A stretch of 54,786 nt of DNA from a virus (taxonomy: Duplodnaviria > Caudoviricetes), in IMG/VR virus record IMGVR_UViG_3300036826_000065, positions 1 through 54,786 of that record; one strand, given 5' to 3'. Within the stretch, counting starts at the first letter, position 1, and the number at the start of each line of letters is the position of its first letter. Positions 525 to 54,786 of the stretch are shown here, in pieces. The notes under the pieces are model-generated. The model was not told the origin of the DNA. It did not search any database and worked only from the letters and a program-made list of their open reading frames with translations. Both the position numbers and the translations under genes were made by a program.

Positions 525-1492
525 CAAGCCGCCTCCTCCTTCTCTTCCTTCAAAAGTTTGGAGGTCAGCAGAAACCTCCGGCTTCCTTCCTTCGTCCGCG
601 AGTAGAACTCGATCAAGGCGTCACGTTCGGTCGGCAGCATGAACTGATTCATCAGCCCGCGAGCCATCGACTCCCAGTCAATAATGGTCCGGTCCTTGGT
701 CTTCCTCCAGGTGACCTGACCATCGACCCACTTGATGCCCTCGCGATTGGCGATCAATTGCTGTATCTGGACCTCCAGGTCTTCCTTGCGCCGCTTCAGG
801 TCGGCGCCGTTGATGCGGTTCCAAAGATACTCGTTCAATAACTCCAGTTCGGATTCATGGGCGAAGCGAAGGTCGGGCCTCTTGTGCGTGGGATAAGTCC
901 GCTGCAACCATCGCCGCGACAGGTCGCTGGAGGTAAGCTCCACCGGCACGCCGCGCACGACATGCGCGTCCCACCAGCGGCTGGCGACTCCCAGCAAGGC
1001 GTTGAATAACTCCGGGTCATGGCGGAACTCGTAATAGCGCATGGTCCCCCTATCATGGACAGCCAGAATCCAAGCCTCGCGCCCAGATACACCCAGATAC
1101 CAGTAACACTGAAGCGCGAAGTGCGCGGGCACTGAATCAATCGACTCCCCGAAGTGCAGGGGACTGAACTGTGTAACATGCTTGGCCTCCACGCCGACCT
1201 TCTCGCCCAGGGCGTCAGCGGTCCCCAGGGCGATGGCGCATTCGGGATGCTGGATCATGACGTTGGGCGTCACCGTCAGATTGAACCGGCGACTCGCCAG
1301 CGTGATGATGGCGGATTCAAACACATGCCCTTCGGCACGCTCATCGTCTACCTGGGGCTCCGGCTCCGCAATCGTCTCCGGCTCCGCAATCTTACTGATG
1401 AGCACGTCGCTCTCATCCTTGAACGGGTCTTCATGAATCAACGCCGATATGTCGCTTCCGCCGATGCCCAGGCGGCGCCGCAGCGGGTCCAT
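524..1492 (-). CDS. YqaJ-like viral recombinase/exonuclease
   Basis: RRLGIGGSD, GHVFE, TADAL..GVEAK and QCYWYLGV motifs; adjacent to recT; start placed at the coupled ATG 1492. Confidence 0.88.
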   Translation of the reverse strand: MDPLRRRLGIGGSDISALIHEDPFKDESDVLISKIAEPETIAEPEPQVDDERAEGHVFESAIITLASRRFNLTVTPNVMIQHPECAIALGTADALGEKVGVEAKHVTQFSPLHFGESIDSVPAHFALQCYWYLGVSGREAWILAVHDRGTMRYYEFRHDPELFNALLGVASRWWDAHVVRGVPVELTSSDLSRRWLQRTYPTHKRPDLRFAHESELELLNEYLWNRINGADLKRRKEDLEVQIQQLIANREGIKWVDGQVTWRKTKDRTIIDWESMARGLMNQFMLPTERDALIEFYSRTKEGSRRFLLTSKLLKEEKEEAA

Positions 1493-45890: not shown

Positions 45891-47660
45891 TCACGCCGCG
45901 ATCCGTACCCTGGTCGTTACCTGGAGTTGCTTATTGTAAATCGCACGTTCAGGCTGCTTACAATTAGCAACATTCAGGCGAACCAGGATGGTGATTTCCG
46001 CCCAGCCGTGTGCGTAGCGTATGCCGCCAGCCGGAATCCAGTCCAGCAGGATGGCTTGTTGCTCCACCGGGTCGGTCGTTTGGAAAGCCTTGCGGGCTAG
46101 CCGCTGAATTGTGGCGAGGTCGTATTGCTCCGGCTCAACCTCTCCGGCTCCGGCTTCGATGCGCCGGTCCAAGAGGGCGAGTTCGGTTTTATATTTCGCC
46201 ACCAGCCCAGCATACTCCGCTTTGTCCTCGTCGGAGTCGGCGTCGATCTCCTTTCTCATCGCTTCCCGTCGCTTCTGATCCTTCCGCTTCCGCTCTTCGC
46301 GGAGGCGAGCCAGTTCGGCCTCGTCGTCCGGCGTGACGACCTCACCGAACTTCTCCGCGACCAGCGACTCCAACTGATCGCAGACGGCGGTCTTCAGCCC
46401 ATTCCAAACGCCGGGATGCAGAATGTCGGCGCGAACGGATTTGGAATCGCACTCGTAATGTCCCTCCGTCTTGTGCCGGTGCGTGCAGCGGTAGTACAGC
46501 GTGCGCGTGCCGTCGTCCTTCACCGCACTTCCATGCGCGGGCGCCATCGCTTTTTTGCACTCCTCACCGATGCCCTCGCCGGAGATCACGGTGGCGCCGC
46601 AGGAAACCAGCGTGCTGAGTATCGCCACCTGACCGCCGTCTTCGGCTCGCCGTGCGGGCTTGCCAGTGGACGCGGCGCCATTGCGCTTCAGGCCTTCGAT
46701 GATGGCCGCTTGCTCATCCGGCGTCCAGATGCCGCCACCGGGCATCTCGATCTTGCCAGCCCACTCCTCGCGGGGCTTGAACACCTTCACGGTGCGAACC
46801 TTGTGCCGCTCCGCTTCCGGGTTACGAACTTTTTTGGGCTCGATGAACTTGCGCTTGCCGTACCACCATTCGCCGCTGGAATAGGTCCAGTCGTTCGCGA
46901 TTGCGGCCACGGTAATCGGATTCCAGCCCAGCTTGCCGCCGGGAGTCTTGATGCCACGCGAGTCCAGTTCCCGGCAGATGCCACGCTGGGTGCCTTCGCG
47001 CCCCCCGGCCAGCGCGAGTTCACCGATTAGCTGCACGACTTCCAGTTCGTTCACGCGCCGTTCGTAGAAGTTCTGCGGTCTGCCGGTCGGAACTTCCTCG
47101 TTGGCGTTCAGAGCCCGCGCCGCGATCTCCCTGGCGGTCACCATGTGCCAGCCGTAGGGCGCACCGAAGTGCGCGAGGCCCTTCGCCAGCTTCGCCATCA
47201 CGCCATAGCGGGACTTCTCCGCAATGTCGTCCCGCTGATACTGGGCGACGGTCAGAAACATGTTCATCTGCATGCGGAACCAGCCGCTGTCCTGATACCA
47301 GCCCAGGTCGCCCAGCAGCACGTCGGCCTTCAGTTCGCGGAACTCGCGGATGGTTGCGAGCCCGCCTTCGACGTCGCGGGAGAAGCGGTCGATCCAGGGG
47401 AATGCGACGGCGTTCGCCACGCCAGCGCGGATCTGTTTTTTGGCGAGCCGGATCGAAGGCCGGTTGAAGTCAGTGCCGCTGTAGCCCTTGTCTTCGATCA
47501 TCAGTTCGGCGGGAATGTCGCAATCGTACTTGTCGGCCAGGAGGGCGAACTTGTTGCCCTGTCCGTCGAAGGAGTAGTTGCCGACCTGCTTCAGCAAGCT
47601 GACGCGCTTAATCCCGATTGCGATCCGGCGTGCCGGTCTTGGGAATGCTCTTGCGGCCAT
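45891..47660 (-). CDS. large serine recombinase (integrase)
   Basis: RVS..Q, D.GYSG...RP, DRFSR; recombinase domain PYG; Zn-ribbon cysteines and coiled coil. Confidence 0.92.
   Translation of the reverse strand: MAARAFPRPARRIAIGIKRVSLLKQVGNYSFDGQGNKFALLADKYDCDIPAELMIEDKGYSGTDFNRPSIRLAKKQIRAGVANAVAFPWIDRFSRDVEGGLATIREFRELKADVLLGDLGWYQDSGWFRMQMNMFLTVAQYQRDDIAEKSRYGVMAKLAKGLAHFGAPYGWHMVTAREIAARALNANEEVPTGRPQNFYERRVNELEVVQLIGELALAGGREGTQRGICRELDSRGIKTPGGKLGWNPITVAAIANDWTYSSGEWWYGKRKFIEPKKVRNPEAERHKVRTVKVFKPREEWAGKIEMPGGGIWTPDEQAAIIEGLKRNGAASTGKPARRAEDGGQVAILSTLVSCGATVISGEGIGEECKKAMAPAHGSAVKDDGTRTLYYRCTHRHKTEGHYECDSKSVRADILHPGVWNGLKTAVCDQLESLVAEKFGEVVTPDDEAELARLREERKRKDQKRREAMRKEIDADSDEDKAEYAGLVAKYKTELALLDRRIEAGAGEVEPEQYDLATIQRLARKAFQTTDPVEQQAILLDWIPAGGIRYAHGWAEITILVRLNVANCKQPERAIYNKQLQVTTRVRIAA
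45926..45971. other. candidate attP
   Basis: GTTGCTTATTGTAA-18 bp-TTACAATTAGCAAC (13/14 inverted arms) with central TT. Confidence 0.6.
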
Positions 47661-48225: not shown

Positions 48226-48562
48226 CGGGAAGGTCGCGGAACCAGAACCGGCGCCCGTCAGCCGACTCGCCGGTCAAGTGCATGCGCAGAATTGGAGATT
48301 GCTTCCCGCGCAGATGTTCACGCAGCCACTGGAGCCCAACGACAATGAAGCCGTGCGGGCTGCGGGAGTCCACCTGGGGCGGCATGGCCGCGACTTCGGT
48401 CTTGGAGAGTACATCCGCCATTCCGTCCCAGGGATTGATCTCATCGGTCATTTGATTTCTCCTCGCCTCGCCATGCCCCTCCGCGCCCAACCGGGCCTCG
48501 CCGGGTAGATCATTCGTCGGCCTCCAGAATCGATATGCCGCCAGCTTGCTTCGCCGCCTCAT
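48197..48562 (-). CDS. hypothetical protein (true start probably internal, MTDEIN)
   Basis: GGAG SD before the internal ATG. Confidence 0.45.
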   Translation of the reverse strand: MRRRSKLAAYRFWRPTNDLPGEARLGAEGHGEARRNQMTDEINPWDGMADVLSKTEVAAMPPQVDSRSPHGFIVVGLQWLREHLRGKQSPILRMHLTGESADGRRFWFRDLPGVRQELGME

Positions 48563-48952: not shown

Positions 48953-49154
48953 TCAGTCCCCTCCGCAGTGATCGTCACCGAATGCAGCAGATTGCGCGAG
49001 CGATCTCGCCATTCGATCTCGACGCCGCCAATTAAGTTGGCCCGCACTTCGGGCGTGGCGTTGATGATTTGTTCGGCCAGAAAGATGGCCGCTTCGCTGG
49101 GCGGCTGATCGCCGCAGCCTGGGTCGGCCCCGCGCAGATAATCAAGCTTGATTG

Positions 49155-49577
49155 TCATTCGCCCTCCTTCGGCGGCTCCTTCACGGGTTTCAGCGAGCCG
49201 GAGTCCTCCTCCATCAGCCGCTGGCCTTCCTCCCAACTCACTGCGTTGGGATACTCCACCATCTCGATGCCGCGCCGCTTCAGTTCCTTCATGACCTTCT
49301 CCATGTGATCCGCGAATGAGCGGTTGTGCGCGTGTCCCAGGACCCAGCACAGGACCTCCGCATAGGAATGAATACGGATCGCTAACATCGAGCCGGAGCC
49401 AATGGGGATGCTGGGCTCGAGAATGAGTCCCGCGTATAAGTCGTGCGCGAACTGAATCTCGCGCAAGCTACGGATTTTAGGCCTTTCCATCGCCCCCTCG
49501 CTTGAATTGAAGCTTGCGGGCGAAGTCGAAGAGCACGTCATAGGCGACAAGATAAACGTCCCGTTTCCGCTTCTCAC
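49155..49577 (-). CDS. hypothetical protein (start probably MERPKI)
   Basis: L.WVLG motif; internal SD. Confidence 0.5.
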   Translation of the reverse strand: MRSGNGTFILSPMTCSSTSPASFNSSEGAMERPKIRSLREIQFAHDLYAGLILEPSIPIGSGSMLAIRIHSYAEVLCWVLGHAHNRSFADHMEKVMKELKRRGIEMVEYPNAVSWEEGQRLMEEDSGSLKPVKEPPKEGE

Positions 49578-49680
49578 TGATCTCCAGGTAGCGCGGGAAA
49601 AGCCGAATGATGAGAGGCCGGTCGCGATGCTTTGCCGCCGTCTCGCGAATTACTGAGCTTGAGCTTTCAAGCTTGGTCAT
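49477..49680 (-). CDS. hypothetical protein
   Basis: GAGGAG SD. Confidence 0.55.
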   Translation of the reverse strand: MTKLESSSSVIRETAAKHRDRPLIIRLFPRYLEISEKRKRDVYLVAYDVLFDFARKLQFKRGGDGKA

Positions 49681-49827
49681 AACTCCTCAGTCGCGCCGCA
49701 GGTTTGACACACATATCCATAAAACACCATCCATTCCGAATAGCCGTCACAACTGACGCCCGATGGATACTCAACTTCGGCGTAAGTCATCGGGGCGCCG
49801 CATGAGCAAACCTTCTCGGGTTGATCA

Positions 49828-50304
49828 TTCTCGCCTTGCATCGCACTGCCCCACCTCACCATGCCCTGCCCCACCTCGCCAGACATTGCCTCGCCATGCC
49901 TAGCCATGTTGAGGAAAAAAACCTCGCCTTACCTTACCTGACCGTGCCCGACCCTACCCGACCCTACCCGACCAGACCTCACCCGACACAGCCTCGCCAT
50001 GCCCCGCCGCTGAAAAAAAAGAATGAGTGCAGCCTCGCCATGCCTCGCCGTGCCGGACCTCACCTCGCCATACCGGGCCACGCCTTAACTCGCCTAGCCC
50101 CGCCATACTTTAAATCCTCGCCTCGCCATGCCTGACCAAGCCAAACCGCGCACGGCCTCACCATGCCGGACCCCGCCCAGCCACAAGATGAAAATATGAG
50201 TGCAACCTCGCCTTACCTTGCCGCGCCGCGCCACTCCCCGCCACTCCATGCATTGGCCCACCACGCGATGCCACGCCAAGCCTGACACCGCCCTGCCTCA
50301 CCAC
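49828..50304 (-). repeat. five (NN-GGY)n pentamer arrays, putative guide RNAs (49828-49907, 49921-50010, 50032-50106, 50115-50184, 50205-50304)
   Basis: Strict 5-nt periodicity (RCC-NN on plus), 14-20 units each, separated by AT-rich linkers. Confidence 0.85.
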
Positions 50305-50309
50305 GATCT

Positions 50310-50990
50310 CTACGCGGCTGTCATCGTCTTGCCGGACAGCAAGCCAGCCAGCCGCTCCAAAGCCTTGCGAACATCGTCGTTCGCGAGATCCATGAGCCCG
50401 CTCTCTAGGAGATCGATCACCTGACGGATCATGAACGTCTGGGTCGCGCCGCCCAGGCGTTTATTCACCTCGACCTGCTCGCCGGTCAGCGTCATTCCGC
50501 TCATGTGGGCGGCGGCGCGTTTCAGCGGAATCGGCTGCGGCTTCTTTTGCCCCGGCACATTCAATTCGCCCAGCCGGTTGAGCCGAAGCTCGCCCAGTTT
50601 CATGACCGTCACGCCCAGGGCGGCGGCGGTCTGATCAACCGTCAGTTCCAGCTTCTGCCCAATCAACTGACAGCGGATGCGGTCAATGTTCGTCAGTTTG
50701 CGCCCATGATCCGCGTTCAGGCGCATCGCATCCATGAATAGCTCGCCATCGGTCTTATAGTTCCGTGTCACCACCTCGACCGGATATTCCTTGCCGTGCA
50801 GCGACAGATACAGTTTGTACCGATGGAAGCCGTCCACGATCCGCCGCGATTTCGCGCAGATGATAATCGGCGGGAATGTTCTCCCGGCCTTCAGCGATTG
50901 CTTCATTTCCGCGACGTGGTACATATCTACCGACTCTCGCGGATAAACGTCATAGTCCAAAACTAAGTCGCTCAATTTATAAGTCTTCAT
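50310..50990 (-). CDS. ParB/Srx N-terminal domain protein
   Basis: FPPIII...IVDGFHRY and N..HG..L motifs. Confidence 0.8.
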   Translation of the reverse strand: MKTYKLSDLVLDYDVYPRESVDMYHVAEMKQSLKAGRTFPPIIICAKSRRIVDGFHRYKLYLSLHGKEYPVEVVTRNYKTDGELFMDAMRLNADHGRKLTNIDRIRCQLIGQKLELTVDQTAAALGVTVMKLGELRLNRLGELNVPGQKKPQPIPLKRAAAHMSGMTLTGEQVEVNKRLGGATQTFMIRQVIDLLESGLMDLANDDVRKALERLAGLLSGKTMTAA

Positions 50991-50991
50991 A

Positions 50992-51332
50992 ACCTCGCCC
51001 TGCACCGCCAAACCTCACCATGCCTCGCCGTACCCAACCCGGCCAGACCCCGCCAAGCCAAGCATCACCCCGCACGGCCCTGCCACGCCCCGCTGCAAAA
51101 GAGTTCCACAAATCTTATAAGTGCAACCGCGCCATGCCTTGCCGAACCGCGCCAGGCCGTGCCTGACCCGGCCAGACCTCGCCTGACCAGACCCGGCCAA
51201 GCCTCGATCAGGAGGAGCAGGGCGGGAAGCAGCCCGCCCTGTCGAAGTATGTGTCAGAGTTGTCCTCGCCTTGCCTCGCGCCGCCCAGCCCGGCCAGACC
51301 TTGCCGCGCCAGGCCGCGCACGGCCTCGCCTT
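50992..51332 (-). repeat. three (NN-GGY)n arrays (50992-51091, 51126-51205, 51263-51332)
   Basis: Same periodicity; hairpin at 51218-51241 in a linker. Confidence 0.85.
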
Positions 51333-51907
51333 CAGTTCTTAGAAGTCTCCAGAAGTCGTAGACTGAAACGTCCGAATGGTCCTCCCTTCTCCGGTCGGTA
51401 ATCACCGATGCCGACCATGCGACCGGCGAGGTTGCCAATCTCCTCGATCATCTTCAGGTTCTCCACGATGGTGTCGTCCACCTCCAGGTTCACGACCGCT
51501 CGCCAGTTTTCGATCTTTGGGCGCGAGCGCATGATGCCGATGGTCTTGTTGAGGACCACGCGCCGGGTATCCACCGTGTAGCTCTTGCCGCTCATCGGCT
51601 TGCCCTTGGCGTCCAAGATCTGGAAGTATTCGTCCAACGGGAAGATGGTCGCCTTCAGAACTCCCAGCGCACTGAGCTTGCCGATGCGACGGCCTTTGCC
51701 GCCGCTGGCAATCGCCGCCTTCACGGCGACTGTGGGAAAGACGAAGTTGCCCTTCTCATCCAGGTAACGACCGGCTGCGGCTTCGTCCTCCGGCTCCGGC
51801 ACCTTCTTGGTGTCCAGCTTGCCGTGCTTACTGCCGCTCATTGCGGAAGGGTTGTGCATCAGAATCGGCGTCGTGCCGACCAGTTCGACTTTAATATTCG
51901 TTGACAT
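51332..51907 (-). CDS. RAMP/Cas7-like RNA-binding protein (putative guide-RNA effector)
   Basis: N-terminal VELVGTTPILMH, FP..AVKAAI, and C-terminal Gly-rich loop GIGDYRPEKGGPFGRF; flanked by arrays. Confidence 0.65.
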   Translation of the reverse strand: MSTNIKVELVGTTPILMHNPSAMSGSKHGKLDTKKVPEPEDEAAAGRYLDEKGNFVFPTVAVKAAIASGGKGRRIGKLSALGVLKATIFPLDEYFQILDAKGKPMSGKSYTVDTRRVVLNKTIGIMRSRPKIENWRAVVNLEVDDTIVENLKMIEEIGNLAGRMVGIGDYRPEKGGPFGRFSLRLLETSKN

Positions 51908-51941
51908 ACACGTGTCCTCTCAGTTCTCATTGATTGGATTG

Positions 51942-52166
51942 ACCATGCCCCGCCATACCACGCCGAATCACGCCTGACCAAGCCAAACCCAACCGCGCCT
52001 AGCCAAACCCTGCCGGGATGCTATGTCCGGGGTTGCCCAATAGTTTCGGTATTAGGCCCTTGTATTAAGAAACCTCGCCTTGCCATACCATGCAGTGCAT
52101 TGCCATGACCCGCCGGACCTCGCCGGACCAGACCTCGCCTAGCCGTGCCACGCACCGCCATGCCTC
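51942..52166 (-). repeat. two (NN-GGY)n arrays (51942-52016, 52072-52166)
   Basis: Same periodicity. Confidence 0.85.
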
Positions 52167-52533
52167 AACTCTCAGAATCTTCGTCAAGATCTTCCCTGTC
52201 GAATAACTGCCTCTGCAACTCGCCGGGAGTCATCTTCTCGACGCGAATCGGCTTACCACTGCTCGCAACAAAAACAGTCTTTTCGCCAACTGAGGGCTCA
52301 TCGAAAGTAACCCCAATCTCCATCTCCTCCAACTCATAGCCCAGGGCGAGTTTCTGCTGGAGATCGCTGCACGCCTTCTCGGCGGTCAGGATCTCACTGG
52401 CAATCGCGGACGTCATTGCCTTTTTCCGACTGCGCAGTTCATAAATCGCTCCCACGCGAAAAACCAGTTCGTCCTTCATCCGCGACGTCTCTTCGGCGGT
52501 GAACGGTCGCTTCACTTCCTCCGTCATCTTCAT
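52165..52533 (-). CDS. hypothetical phage protein
   Basis: FT.EE...GYE...G...MT..ELQ; GGAGG SD. Confidence 0.7.
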   Translation of the reverse strand: MKMTEEVKRPFTAEETSRMKDELVFRVGAIYELRSRKKAMTSAIASEILTAEKACSDLQQKLALGYELEEMEIGVTFDEPSVGEKTVFVASSGKPIRVEKMTPGELQRQLFDREDLDEDSES

Positions 52534-52546
52534 GAAGTAAGCCTCC

Positions 52547-53518
52547 TTAGTGCGCCCAACTGGGTTGTGGCAAGAACACCTTCTTGCCGGTTTCGGTTTG
52601 CAGCCGTGCGACGAAGATCGCCTTCACCCGGTTGTACGCGGGCGTGCGGTCGCGTTCGGAGATCGTGCGCCCCAGGAGCCAATCGACATAGTCCGCTGTC
52701 GCGCTTACCGACATGAGACATTTCTTGAACGAATCCCTGGTAATCGGCGCCACCTTGCTCGACAGTTCGGGGTGCAGGACTAAGCGCCGGAAAAGCCACA
52801 TGCAGATGATCATGTTGAGCGTTGACCAGAGCCGACCGTACTGCAAGTCGCGCCCCCAGGCGCCCACGGCAAGATTCAGGAATTCGATGAGCGCATCGTA
52901 CTCCTTCGGATCGAGCGTTTCCGCGACCAGGGCGGCGCTTAATGTGGCGCCCGTGCTGGGGACTTCCGACATGCTGCCGCGCCATGCCCTGAGGACCAGC
53001 GACATGCCCACGACCGGCGCCGACTGATTGCGGCGGATGTAATCGTAGCCGACAAAGGGACAATGCGCCCGCAACTTCCGCAGCCCGTCGATGGAGGACT
53101 CCAGCCCGCGCAGGATATCGTCTGGGCGCATGCGGACCAGTTGCGAGTTCAGCCGGACGAACTCCTCGCCCATGTCGGCCATCGAGTTGAAGTAGTGCGT
53201 CCTGACGTCGGTGTAGCCTTCCTTGCAGCCGGAGAGGATGAACGACTCCTTCCTGTGCTGGCCGTCGATCAGATAGATCTCGCCGTCCAGAATCGCCAGC
53301 GTGATGATTCCCGGCCAGACGCCGCCGTCGCGCTTCATCTCTTCGGCCAGGGCGCGGACCTTCTCGTTCTGGCGCACCGGCCTCTGGAACGGCGGCGACT
53401 TCCACTTCTCCAGCAACGTGGGCGTCACCATGATGGTGTCCACGACGGTGCGAGTCTTTTTCTCCACCGGCGTTTGCGGTTTCACGATTTTAAATAGCGC
53501 GGCCAATGGCATGTGCAA
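52547..53518 (-). CDS. DGQHR/ParB-like domain protein
   Basis: FQRP and YLIDGQHR. Confidence 0.75.
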   Translation of the reverse strand: MHMPLAALFKIVKPQTPVEKKTRTVVDTIMVTPTLLEKWKSPPFQRPVRQNEKVRALAEEMKRDGGVWPGIITLAILDGEIYLIDGQHRKESFILSGCKEGYTDVRTHYFNSMADMGEEFVRLNSQLVRMRPDDILRGLESSIDGLRKLRAHCPFVGYDYIRRNQSAPVVGMSLVLRAWRGSMSEVPSTGATLSAALVAETLDPKEYDALIEFLNLAVGAWGRDLQYGRLWSTLNMIICMWLFRRLVLHPELSSKVAPITRDSFKKCLMSVSATADYVDWLLGRTISERDRTPAYNRVKAIFVARLQTETGKKVFLPQPSWAH

Positions 53519-54275
53519 CGTCTCCTTCCTCAGTGGTCATTTCCGCGAGCCGATAAATCTCCTTGGCCTCCGGCGAGTCCAAGAGATGCCAGCCCATTGC
53601 GTCGTAGGGCCTCATCCTTGCGCTCCGCAGGATCATCCGAACGAATTGCCCGTGCCCATGGTTGCTGCGGTCGCTGATCAAGCCGTGCGGTCTGTGGAAG
53701 AGCTTGGGCATCTCCTCCAGCCGGTACAGCCTCCGGTGCGCCTTCTCCGGGTTGGCCTTCAGGTCGCCGCGCATCAGCCGGTAATGGCGCAGGTTCAAAT
53801 TCATGATCAGGTCCATGCGCGGGAAGCGGGCGCAGCACTCGATGATCTCCGCGACCGGAACGCCCGCGCCGGTCCTGCTCCGATACAGCCAGCCGTTCGG
53901 GTCGATCACGATACTGCCGACAGCGTGCGGCGGCATGCCCTTGGCCCATTCCATGAAGTGCCGGTTATCGAGCATCTCCACCCGGCAGTTGGGTCGGCCT
54001 CGCAGCCGCGTCTCAAGCTCGCCCGCGCGGGCGTTATCCAATTCAAAGAACATCGCCTTCCAGCGGCGCAGATGTTTCTGCGCAAGCTCCAAGAAGACCA
54101 GCGGCGTACCGGGGACGCCGTACTCATCGTTCCAACCGGAACCGGCGTTCAAGTCGAAGTGATAGTAAGTATCGCCAGGGTAAAGTATCCGCATGCTCAT
54201 GCTGAACATAGCGGCGATCCGCCGCCCTTTGTCGCAAGTGCTCAGACCTTGCCCTTGACGTCTGCCATCCTGCAT
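53490..54275 (-). CDS. SAM-dependent methyltransferase-like protein (TcmP/GMT-like)
   Basis: GQG.S..., FDLNAGSG, G.P, IDPNG and DLIMN motifs. Confidence 0.6.
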   Translation of the reverse strand: MQDGRRQGQGLSTCDKGRRIAAMFSMSMRILYPGDTYYHFDLNAGSGWNDEYGVPGTPLVFLELAQKHLRRWKAMFFELDNARAGELETRLRGRPNCRVEMLDNRHFMEWAKGMPPHAVGSIVIDPNGWLYRSRTGAGVPVAEIIECCARFPRMDLIMNLNLRHYRLMRGDLKANPEKAHRRLYRLEEMPKLFHRPHGLISDRSNHGHGQFVRMILRSARMRPYDAMGWHLLDSPEAKEIYRLAEMTTEEGDVAHAIGRAI

Positions 54276-54301
54276 AAGTTCGCCAGCTTTCGGTAAGGGA
54301 G

Positions 54302-54659
54302 TTACTCTTTGGGCGGCTCGCCGGTTTCCTGCGCCGCCGACATGACCCGGTCGCGGAGCTTCGGCCTTTCTTTCGCACCGGCCTCCAGTTGCTTCGCGCC
54401 TTCGTCGAGGACTTCTTCCCAGCCGCTGACATCCACGGCTTCGGTGTCCTCCTTCTCGATGACGTTGCGCACCTCAGGCGAGAGCGGAAGCCACTTGGAA
54501 TGGCGGCGGAAAACCGTCTTCTTCGCCATCTCGTCGAAATCGGTCACCCATGGTCCCTGATCCGGCGACTTACTGCGCTTGCGGATCTTCTCGATCTCTG
54601 ACGGGTTCATGACGATGAAATCTTCGCTACCGTCCTTGAATCGCACGTAGGAATAGTAA
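54302..54659 (-). CDS. recT: RecT C-terminal part (joined to 524..1)
   Basis: GPWVTDFDEMAKKTVFRR.SKWLPLS. Confidence 0.9.
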
Positions 54660-54786
54660 GCGACTCGATCCGGCCCGCGATCCTTGGCGTTCGGCGTGTG
54701 CTTTAAGTGCGCCTCGGTTCCGTAGGCATAGCTCCATTCGTCGTTGCTGTAAACCGCATCGGCATGCACATAGCTGACGTCGCCGG

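Follow-up and report, generated by a model that had tools for sequence, protein, structure and literature searches.

A probable VIPR guide RNA directed at the catalytic box I of tyrosine integrases in the genome of an uncultured soil phage

Features of the locus

The stretch of DNA analysed here (the window) is the complete virus record IMGVR_UViG_3300036826_000065 (Caudoviricetes), which has a length of 54,786 bp, terminal repeats and a G+C content of 60%, and which was found in soil metagenome runs. The minus strand carries 12 arrays of five-base units between positions 48460 and 52166, 144 units altogether, and the plus strand carries none (whole window, with at least six units required for an array); these arrays are not a product of chance. 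Each unit joins two variable bases (NN) to the bases GGY. The arrays, named A to K and Z, have 8 to 20 units, and all 16 possible NN dinucleotides occur in them. This report deals with array E, 20 units long, which lies between the gene of a small RAMP protein (vipr) and a ParB-like gene. As a guide RNA (vrRNA) it belongs to a VIPR system, and its probable target is box I of tyrosine integrases. The features that concern this array most directly are as follows.

50992..51091, minus strand: vrRNA array E, 20 NN-GGY units, of which units 1-17 are colinear with box I
51332..51907, minus strand: vipr gene, coding for a minimal RAMP (Cas7-like) protein of 191 aa, between arrays B and C
50310..50990, minus strand: ParB-like gene, directly downstream of array E (phrog_1033, E 6.7e-10)
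45891..47660, minus strand: large serine recombinase of the phage itself (Pfam Resolvase, Recombinase, Zn_ribbon_recom)

Read on the minus strand, array E consists of GGGGC GTGGC AGGGC CGTGC GGGGT GATGC TTGGC TTGGC GGGGT CTGGC (units 1-10) and CGGGT TGGGT ACGGC GAGGC ATGGT GAGGT TTGGC GGTGC AGGGC GAGGT (units 11-20). The NN series is GG GT AG CG GG GA TT TT GG CT CG TG AC GA AT GA TT GG AG GA, exactly as listed in the initial annotation of this DNA. The canonical form NNGGY is present in 17 of the 20 units; units 4, 6 and 18 end in TGC instead. Array ends in this phage share a common (A/G)AGGC GAGGW, a consensus matched by units 19-20 (AGGGC GAGGT). The last unit, GAGGT, stands 1 nt before the ATG (50990) of the next minus-strand gene, and thus doubles as the Shine-Dalgarno sequence of the ParB-like gene.

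Vipr protein and accessory gene

The structural model of Vipr, built on a 40-sequence alignment, reached a pLDDT (predicted local distance difference test) score of 93.8 and has the Cas7/Csm3 RAMP fold (Foldseek E 9.7e-8). Vipr is similar to protein ALH47069.1 of phage phiSUSP1 (E 2.9e-11), and pairwise alignment of the two proteins gave 26% identity (E 2e-16). In phiSUSP1 a small gene follows the gene of ALH47069.1, with one array upstream and three downstream. The first VIPR preprint places the vipr gene of SUSP1 with an adjoining accessory gene and in such an array layout (10.64898/2026.04.26.720920). We infer that ALH47069.1 is the SUSP1 Vipr protein, because the position of its gene fits this description. 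The counterparts of the GGY-contacting residues in the pairwise alignment (window/SUSP1) are H18/H17, R129/R138, D169/D177, Y170/W178 and R171/R179: four of the five are unchanged, and the fifth is kept as an aromatic residue (Y170 for W178). In the 40-sequence alignment, conservation of R129 and R171 is 90% or higher.

Protein matches to Vipr were obtained in 132 phage records, including Felixounavirus-like, Pseudomonas and Gordonia phages. A scan of IMG/VR for exact (GGYNN)x10 returned at least 120 contigs with G+C contents of 38-72%; L numbers denote loci retrieved in the searches. Among the matches listed, 117 of 120 loci have arrays on one strand only, and a local profile found a vipr homolog in 83 of the 120, although (GGYNN)x10 alone had been used to fetch them. 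Searches for related loci with single proteins gave one locus (L001) for Vipr and none for the ParB-like protein. Since 12 same-strand arrays flank a RAMP-fold gene that is homologous to the SUSP1 gene at the place of vipr, the locus is identified as a VIPR system, and array E as a guide RNA of that system in a soil phage of 54.8 kb.

The ParB-like gene has no Pfam match. Homologs lie directly downstream of vipr in four other loci (L075:2558-3451, L113:1844-2650, L065:75-1262 on the minus strand, and L093:3704-4411), and with the window these five loci span G+C contents of 39-68%. Because of this recurrence directly after vipr, the gene is likely a vipr-accessory (vap) gene and is regarded as a candidate for the VIPR accessory gene class. 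In VIPR systems, the vap gene beside vipr has a function that relates to DNA. The first VIPR preprint, supplements aside, has no mention of "ParB" in its main text (10.64898/2026.04.26.720920).

Target of array E

According to the same preprint, the NN bases of a vrRNA pair with double-stranded DNA, and every third target base, mostly a codon wobble base, is skipped (10.64898/2026.04.26.720920). When one base is skipped in this manner, units 1-17 of array E read in frame as TG-V-R-R-G-E-L-L-G-L-R-W-T-D-I-D-L, colinear with the box I consensus T-G-x-R-R-G-E-L-L-G-L-R-W-x-D-I-D of tyrosine integrases. This segment we take to carry the first catalytic arginine of tyrosine recombinases. The decoding, already proposed in the initial annotation, needs a choice of residue at 9 of the 18 positions used (AG, three times GA, three times TT, TG and AT). 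In natural integrase genes exactly these codon families stand at the positions concerned, as in TGLRRGELLGLRWKDIDLEG of locus L165.

All scans of the sequence collections were exact, with no mismatches allowed, and the guide was therefore tested by sub-patterns. Units 3-12 gave three matches in the genome collection, which lie in two metagenome-assembled genomes (MAGs) of Ktedonobacteraceae (L156, L158) and one of Dormibacteraceae (L157), and ten matches in the metagenome collection. Every one of them is in an integrase (3/3 and 10/10), in frame at box I of a PF00589 protein, and the 13 sites represent 10 distinct proteins. Over units 1-17 these sites match 27-31 of the 34 read bases (79-91%), with the skipped base at codon position 3. 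A read-base match of at least 82% is reached by 12 of the 13; the published target criterion is an NN match of at least 80% without gaps (10.64898/2026.04.26.720920). The best site, in L165, matches at 31/34 and lies on a contig of 31% G+C, and the site in L162, with 30/34, lies on a contig of 61% G+C. The integrase sites of L158 and L126 also have 30-31 of 34. The search with the gapped pattern suggested in the initial annotation thus did lead to in-frame integrase sites.

Shorter parts of the guide were scanned in IMG/VR. Units 9-17 gave three exact matches, all in integrases (…LRWTDIDF…), and units 1-8 gave eight, of which three are in integrases (TGVRRGELL/F…); each half of the guide therefore finds box I on its own. 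Exact matches to the core, units 5-12, were found at 17 loci. Eight of these are integrases (6 distinct genes; TG-x-R-x-G-E/D-L-L/F-G-L-R-W), and the nine non-integrase loci have only 0-1 matching units beyond the seed. PF00589 scored above the Pfam cut-off in 13/13 ten-unit matches, 3/3 matches to the 3' half, 3/8 matches to the 5' half and five core matches. Among the core matches, L131 is truncated by the end of the locus, and L137 and L138 carry the same gene according to a local hidden Markov model.

The statistical reference was box I DNA from a set of 19 integrases, which lie on array-bearing contigs and had not been selected by pattern. Every 12-unit window of 472 arrays (1503 windows) was scored against these 19 integrases as a null distribution. 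Units 1-12 of array E scored 12.3/24, about five standard deviations above the null of 6.14 ± 1.23, and took rank 2 of 1503; with 17 units, array E took rank 1 of 775 windows. Exact tail probabilities calculated with the NN composition of this phage, which contains 36 such windows, were P = 2.0e-6 (12 units) and 9e-8 (17 units). The match to box I is thus far from chance.

The 12-unit window at rank 1 of 1503 belongs to another phage contig, L026, which is unrelated, 122 kb long and has 65% G+C. Its 31-unit array (800-954, plus strand) directly follows a vipr gene (151-804) and from unit 4 onward reads G-L-R-L-G-E-I-L-S-L-Q-W-K-D, again box I, with different NNs (P = 1.9e-9 against the 19 integrases). 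In a comparison of 34,128 combinations of window, orientation and register, the top nine all came from array E and the L026 array. The latter is a predicted second, independent guide to the same motif.

Several points weigh against box I as the target. The exact pattern of units 1-13 had 0 matches in metagenome_contigs and 0 in genome_contigs, and no perfect or near-perfect target was found in the collections scanned by exact sub-patterns, where 31/34 was the best value. The P values given above refer to a single motif, with no correction for how many motifs a reader might recognise. The exact 8-unit core of the L026 guide had 0/6 IMG/VR matches in integrases, which at the same time shows what such patterns yield by chance. 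In array E, Arg is read from AG and Leu-Leu from TT TT, less usual codon families in DNA of 60% G+C; both families do occur in matches from contigs of 59-61% G+C (L160, L162, L164). The pair AT GA of units 15-16 (ATGGY GAGGY) is found again in arrays A, H, I, J, K and Z, and array I, too, has AC GA AT GA, at its 3' end; an estimate from the NN frequencies is that about one shared run of four units is expected by chance. In view of these recurrences the reading "TDID" of units 13-16 may be partly structural. The case for box I stands without these units, on units 1-12. Finally, array E has 20 units and is without a SUSP1-like tail, whereas the first preprint describes vrRNAs of 9-16 GGY/NN units bound by the small RAMP protein Vipr, with an invariable structured tail at the 3' end (10.64898/2026.04.26.720920).

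The statement of the initial annotation that this phage has a serine integrase and no tyrosine recombinase was correct, as no PF00589 gene is present in the phage genome. The best matches of array E within that genome are 20/34 (59%) and 23/40. The serine recombinase of the phage is not a target of array E.

Comparison with published systems

Natural targets of VIPR are competing phages, satellites and prophages (10.64898/2026.04.26.720920). One Vipr protomer binds each unit, the GGY bases are sequestered by named residues, and a gapped R-loop is formed (10.64898/2026.04.26.720927). The vrRNA4 of SUSP1 silences the excision recombinase of satellite F5, an enzyme with a catalytic serine, at the active-site codons; its footprint is 18 bp (6 units), and the effect was shown experimentally for one E. 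coli satellite family (10.64898/2026.10.15.759431). Escape from this guide would break the enzyme, because the guide is wobble-aligned to codons of the catalytic core. Solo vrRNAs borne by satellites redirect the VIPR of a phage (10.64898/2026.10.15.759431).

The locus shares with VIPR a phage-borne two-gene core, a small RAMP gene flanked by GGY/NN arrays on the strand of the gene, conserved GGY-contact residues, the one-base skip on codon wobble positions and the absence of a self-target. It differs from SUSP1 VIPR in its number of arrays (12 here, four in SUSP1), in the low protein identity of 26%, in its ParB-like accessory gene, and in having TGCACTYAT plus a T-run after some arrays in place of the pseudoknot tail. 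Like vrRNA4 acting on F5, array E is a phage vrRNA wobble-aligned to the catalytic-core codons of a recombinase, here presumably that of a competitor. Unlike vrRNA4, it is aligned to box I of a tyrosine recombinase over about 17 units, is read here from sequence alone, and belongs to a phage that uses a serine integrase.

The VIPR system is thus already known, and so is a guide aimed at the catalytic core of a recombinase. The initial annotation had not taken into account that both VIPR and its targeting of recombinases were already in preprints. Since a serine-recombinase target has been published, the novelty lies in the target class. What appears to be new is the guide to box I of tyrosine integrases, along with the ParB-like accessory gene and the setting in a soil phage. 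The word "integrase" does not occur in the main text of the first preprint (10.64898/2026.04.26.720920), nor "tyrosine" in that of the third (10.64898/2026.10.15.759431), supplements aside in both cases.

Compared with class 1 CRISPR systems, whose backbones are formed by Cas7 proteins (Csm3 in type III-A, Cas7 in type VII), this locus has no repeat-spacer array: no direct repeats of 24-48 nt with unique spacers were found in 49000-54786, and Tandem Repeats Finder reported only arrays of period 5, 6, 10 and 20 in the same interval. The unit period is 5 nt in VIPR and 6 nt in the class 1 Cas7 systems. In VIPR, two of five guide bases pair with two of three target bases, the target is double-stranded DNA and the outcome is silencing.

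Function of array E

The explanation that we consider probable is that array E is a VIPR guide RNA to box I of tyrosine integrases and silences the integrases of rival elements. Since its NN code spells the active-site motif of these enzymes, the phage probably shuts down rival mobile elements with it. By analogy with the SUSP1 system, one Vipr protomer would cover each 5-nt unit and sequester its GGY, the resulting filament would offer the NNs to one DNA strand for pairing, with every third target base flipped out, and the bound filament would block transcription. The complex would act in the host on the integrase genes of competitors, be they prophages, satellites or integrative elements, and published VIPR biology suggests that the integrase of such a competing element is the true target. 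The silenced rivals would be unable to integrate or excise, and the serine integrase of the phage would be spared. A rival could not escape by synonymous change, because the skipped bases are the wobble positions of the catalytic motif.

A likeness to box I by coincidence, with array E still a vrRNA and its true target outside the searched collections, is unlikely. The NN alphabet of the phage is indeed biased, being dominated by GA (34 of 173), AT (19) and GG (16), and this bias combined with free residue choice at half of the decoded positions could produce such a likeness; the lack of an exact 13-unit match and the look-elsewhere effect across many possible motifs point the same way. The tail probabilities of 2e-6 to 9e-8 were, on the other hand, calculated under this same NN composition, all 13 seed matches are in frame in a single motif of a single family, both halves of the guide match box I independently, and a second phage (L026) has the same predicted target with different NNs. 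We regard as improbable a role in cis, in which array E is the leader of the ParB-like gene, Vipr coats the nascent 5' untranslated region and tunes translation, and DNA targeting is secondary or absent. The GAGGT unit next to the start codon at 50990 fits such a leader, in L093, too, the ParB-like gene adjoins an array, and neither a sigma-70-like promoter nor an intrinsic terminator was predicted in 49700-52300; yet a leader does not account for 17 units whose NNs spell a conserved motif of a foreign protein, and it is compatible with a guide function rather than opposed to it. Very improbable, finally, is a decoy or redirecting vrRNA that draws away the Vipr of a competitor. The published solo vrRNAs provide a precedent (10.64898/2026.10.15.759431), but array E stands inside a complete locus beside its own vipr and accessory gene, and integrase genes are no repetitive host decoy. 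A TRAP-like RNA-binding array, heptad-operator-like DNA sites, G-quadruplexes, rut sites and R-loop origins were also considered, and were dropped because the Vipr fold and the published code fit.

For the guide to box I a broader form can be tentatively proposed, which is possible but on the doubtful side: array E could be a "pan-integrase" guide, tuned to the consensus of the box I family and not matched to one rival. Its basis is that 79-91% of the bases read are found in at least 10 distinct integrases from contigs of 31-61% G+C, and one vrRNA could read many integrases because VIPR ignores wobble bases. Tyrosine integrases are the commonest integration enzymes of prophages, satellites and integrative elements. 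Were the proposal true, a phage that has itself gone over to a serine integrase could silence the integration and excision of most tyrosine-integrase elements in the cell. Provided that 3-7 mismatched read bases, as in natural integrases, are tolerated by the guide, one RNA could disarm many unrelated rivals, and such tolerance would explain why a wobble-skipping code pays. The independent guide in L026 suggests that guiding to box I is a recurrent strategy.

With this locus VIPR, published in 2026 from E. coli and Pseudomonas phages, is extended to an uncultured phage from soil, whose accessory gene is a different one. The locus points to a very general new target, the catalytic box I of tyrosine integrases, and provides a concrete, testable natural pair of guide and target outside the model systems.

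Further features of the genome

The other arrays and the spacer between arrays D and E are located as follows.

52072..52166, minus strand: vrRNA array A, 19 units
51942..52016, minus strand: vrRNA array B, 15 units, upstream of vipr
51263..51332, minus strand: vrRNA array C, 14 units, begins at the vipr stop codon
51126..51205, minus strand: vrRNA array D, 16 perfect units
51092..51125, minus strand: spacer that separates arrays D and E; contains the conserved motif TGCACTTAT and, after it, a T-rich run
49828..50304, minus strand: block of six arrays (F, G, H, I, J, K), downstream of the ParB-like gene
48460..48504, minus strand: outlying short array Z, 9 units

TGCACTYAT followed by a T-rich run is located 3' of arrays D, G and I (51092-51125, 50185-50204 and 50011-50031, minus strand). 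A similar motif, TTGCAATCAT, is present in the spacers of L093, a locus of 39% G+C, where in some spacers it stands 17 nt before TATAAT-like hexamers. The TGCACTYAT/TTGCAATCAT motif may serve as the -35 element in promoters of the individual guides, and not as an RNA tail. A search of Rfam gave no family at E ≤1 except one sub-threshold match, and a SUSP1-like tail was not found; the tRNA search gave none. RNA runs containing the stretch were absent among the sequencing runs listed.

The NNs of array C can be read as [KN][DE]-R-A-L-A-[KN]-L-R-W-G-[DE]. Array C was tried as a guide to box I and rejected: it is partly box-I-like (z 4.1), and its 8-unit pattern had 0/6 IMG/VR matches in integrases. 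One match of array C, L189, agrees at 23 of 28 read bases, in a context containing HINGNKLDPALANLRWGD that resembles an HNH endonuclease motif.

A relative in soil runs X6 and X7 is about 6% diverged in the ParB-like and vipr genes (window 50100-52070). In array D it has insertions of 10 nt, equal to two units, behind 51125 and 51129, and some other arrays are replaced or skipped. Given these changes, the guide arrays turn over faster than the genes. In L099, L065, L075 and L058, arrays of 8-13 units are linked by a 4-nt AGGC step, which shifts the phase by one base; they correspond to what the first VIPR preprint calls "staggered arrays with 1-nt overlap" (10.64898/2026.04.26.720920).

The sole species-representative genomes with an exact match to ten units of array E are the soil Chloroflexota and Dormibacterota MAGs mentioned above (L156, L158 and L157), which together with the soil runs of the phage are a weak lead to its host range. 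In the phage collection no close relatives were found for the 7.8-kb region, apart from a stretch of 105 nt in the RecT gene, and none for the open reading frame of 684 aa. The RecT-like annealing protein (phrog_148) is encoded at 54302-54769 on the minus strand. Over the 105 nt its gene has 73-74% identity with RecT genes of Mycobacterium phages, the sole match of the region to deposited phages at the DNA level.
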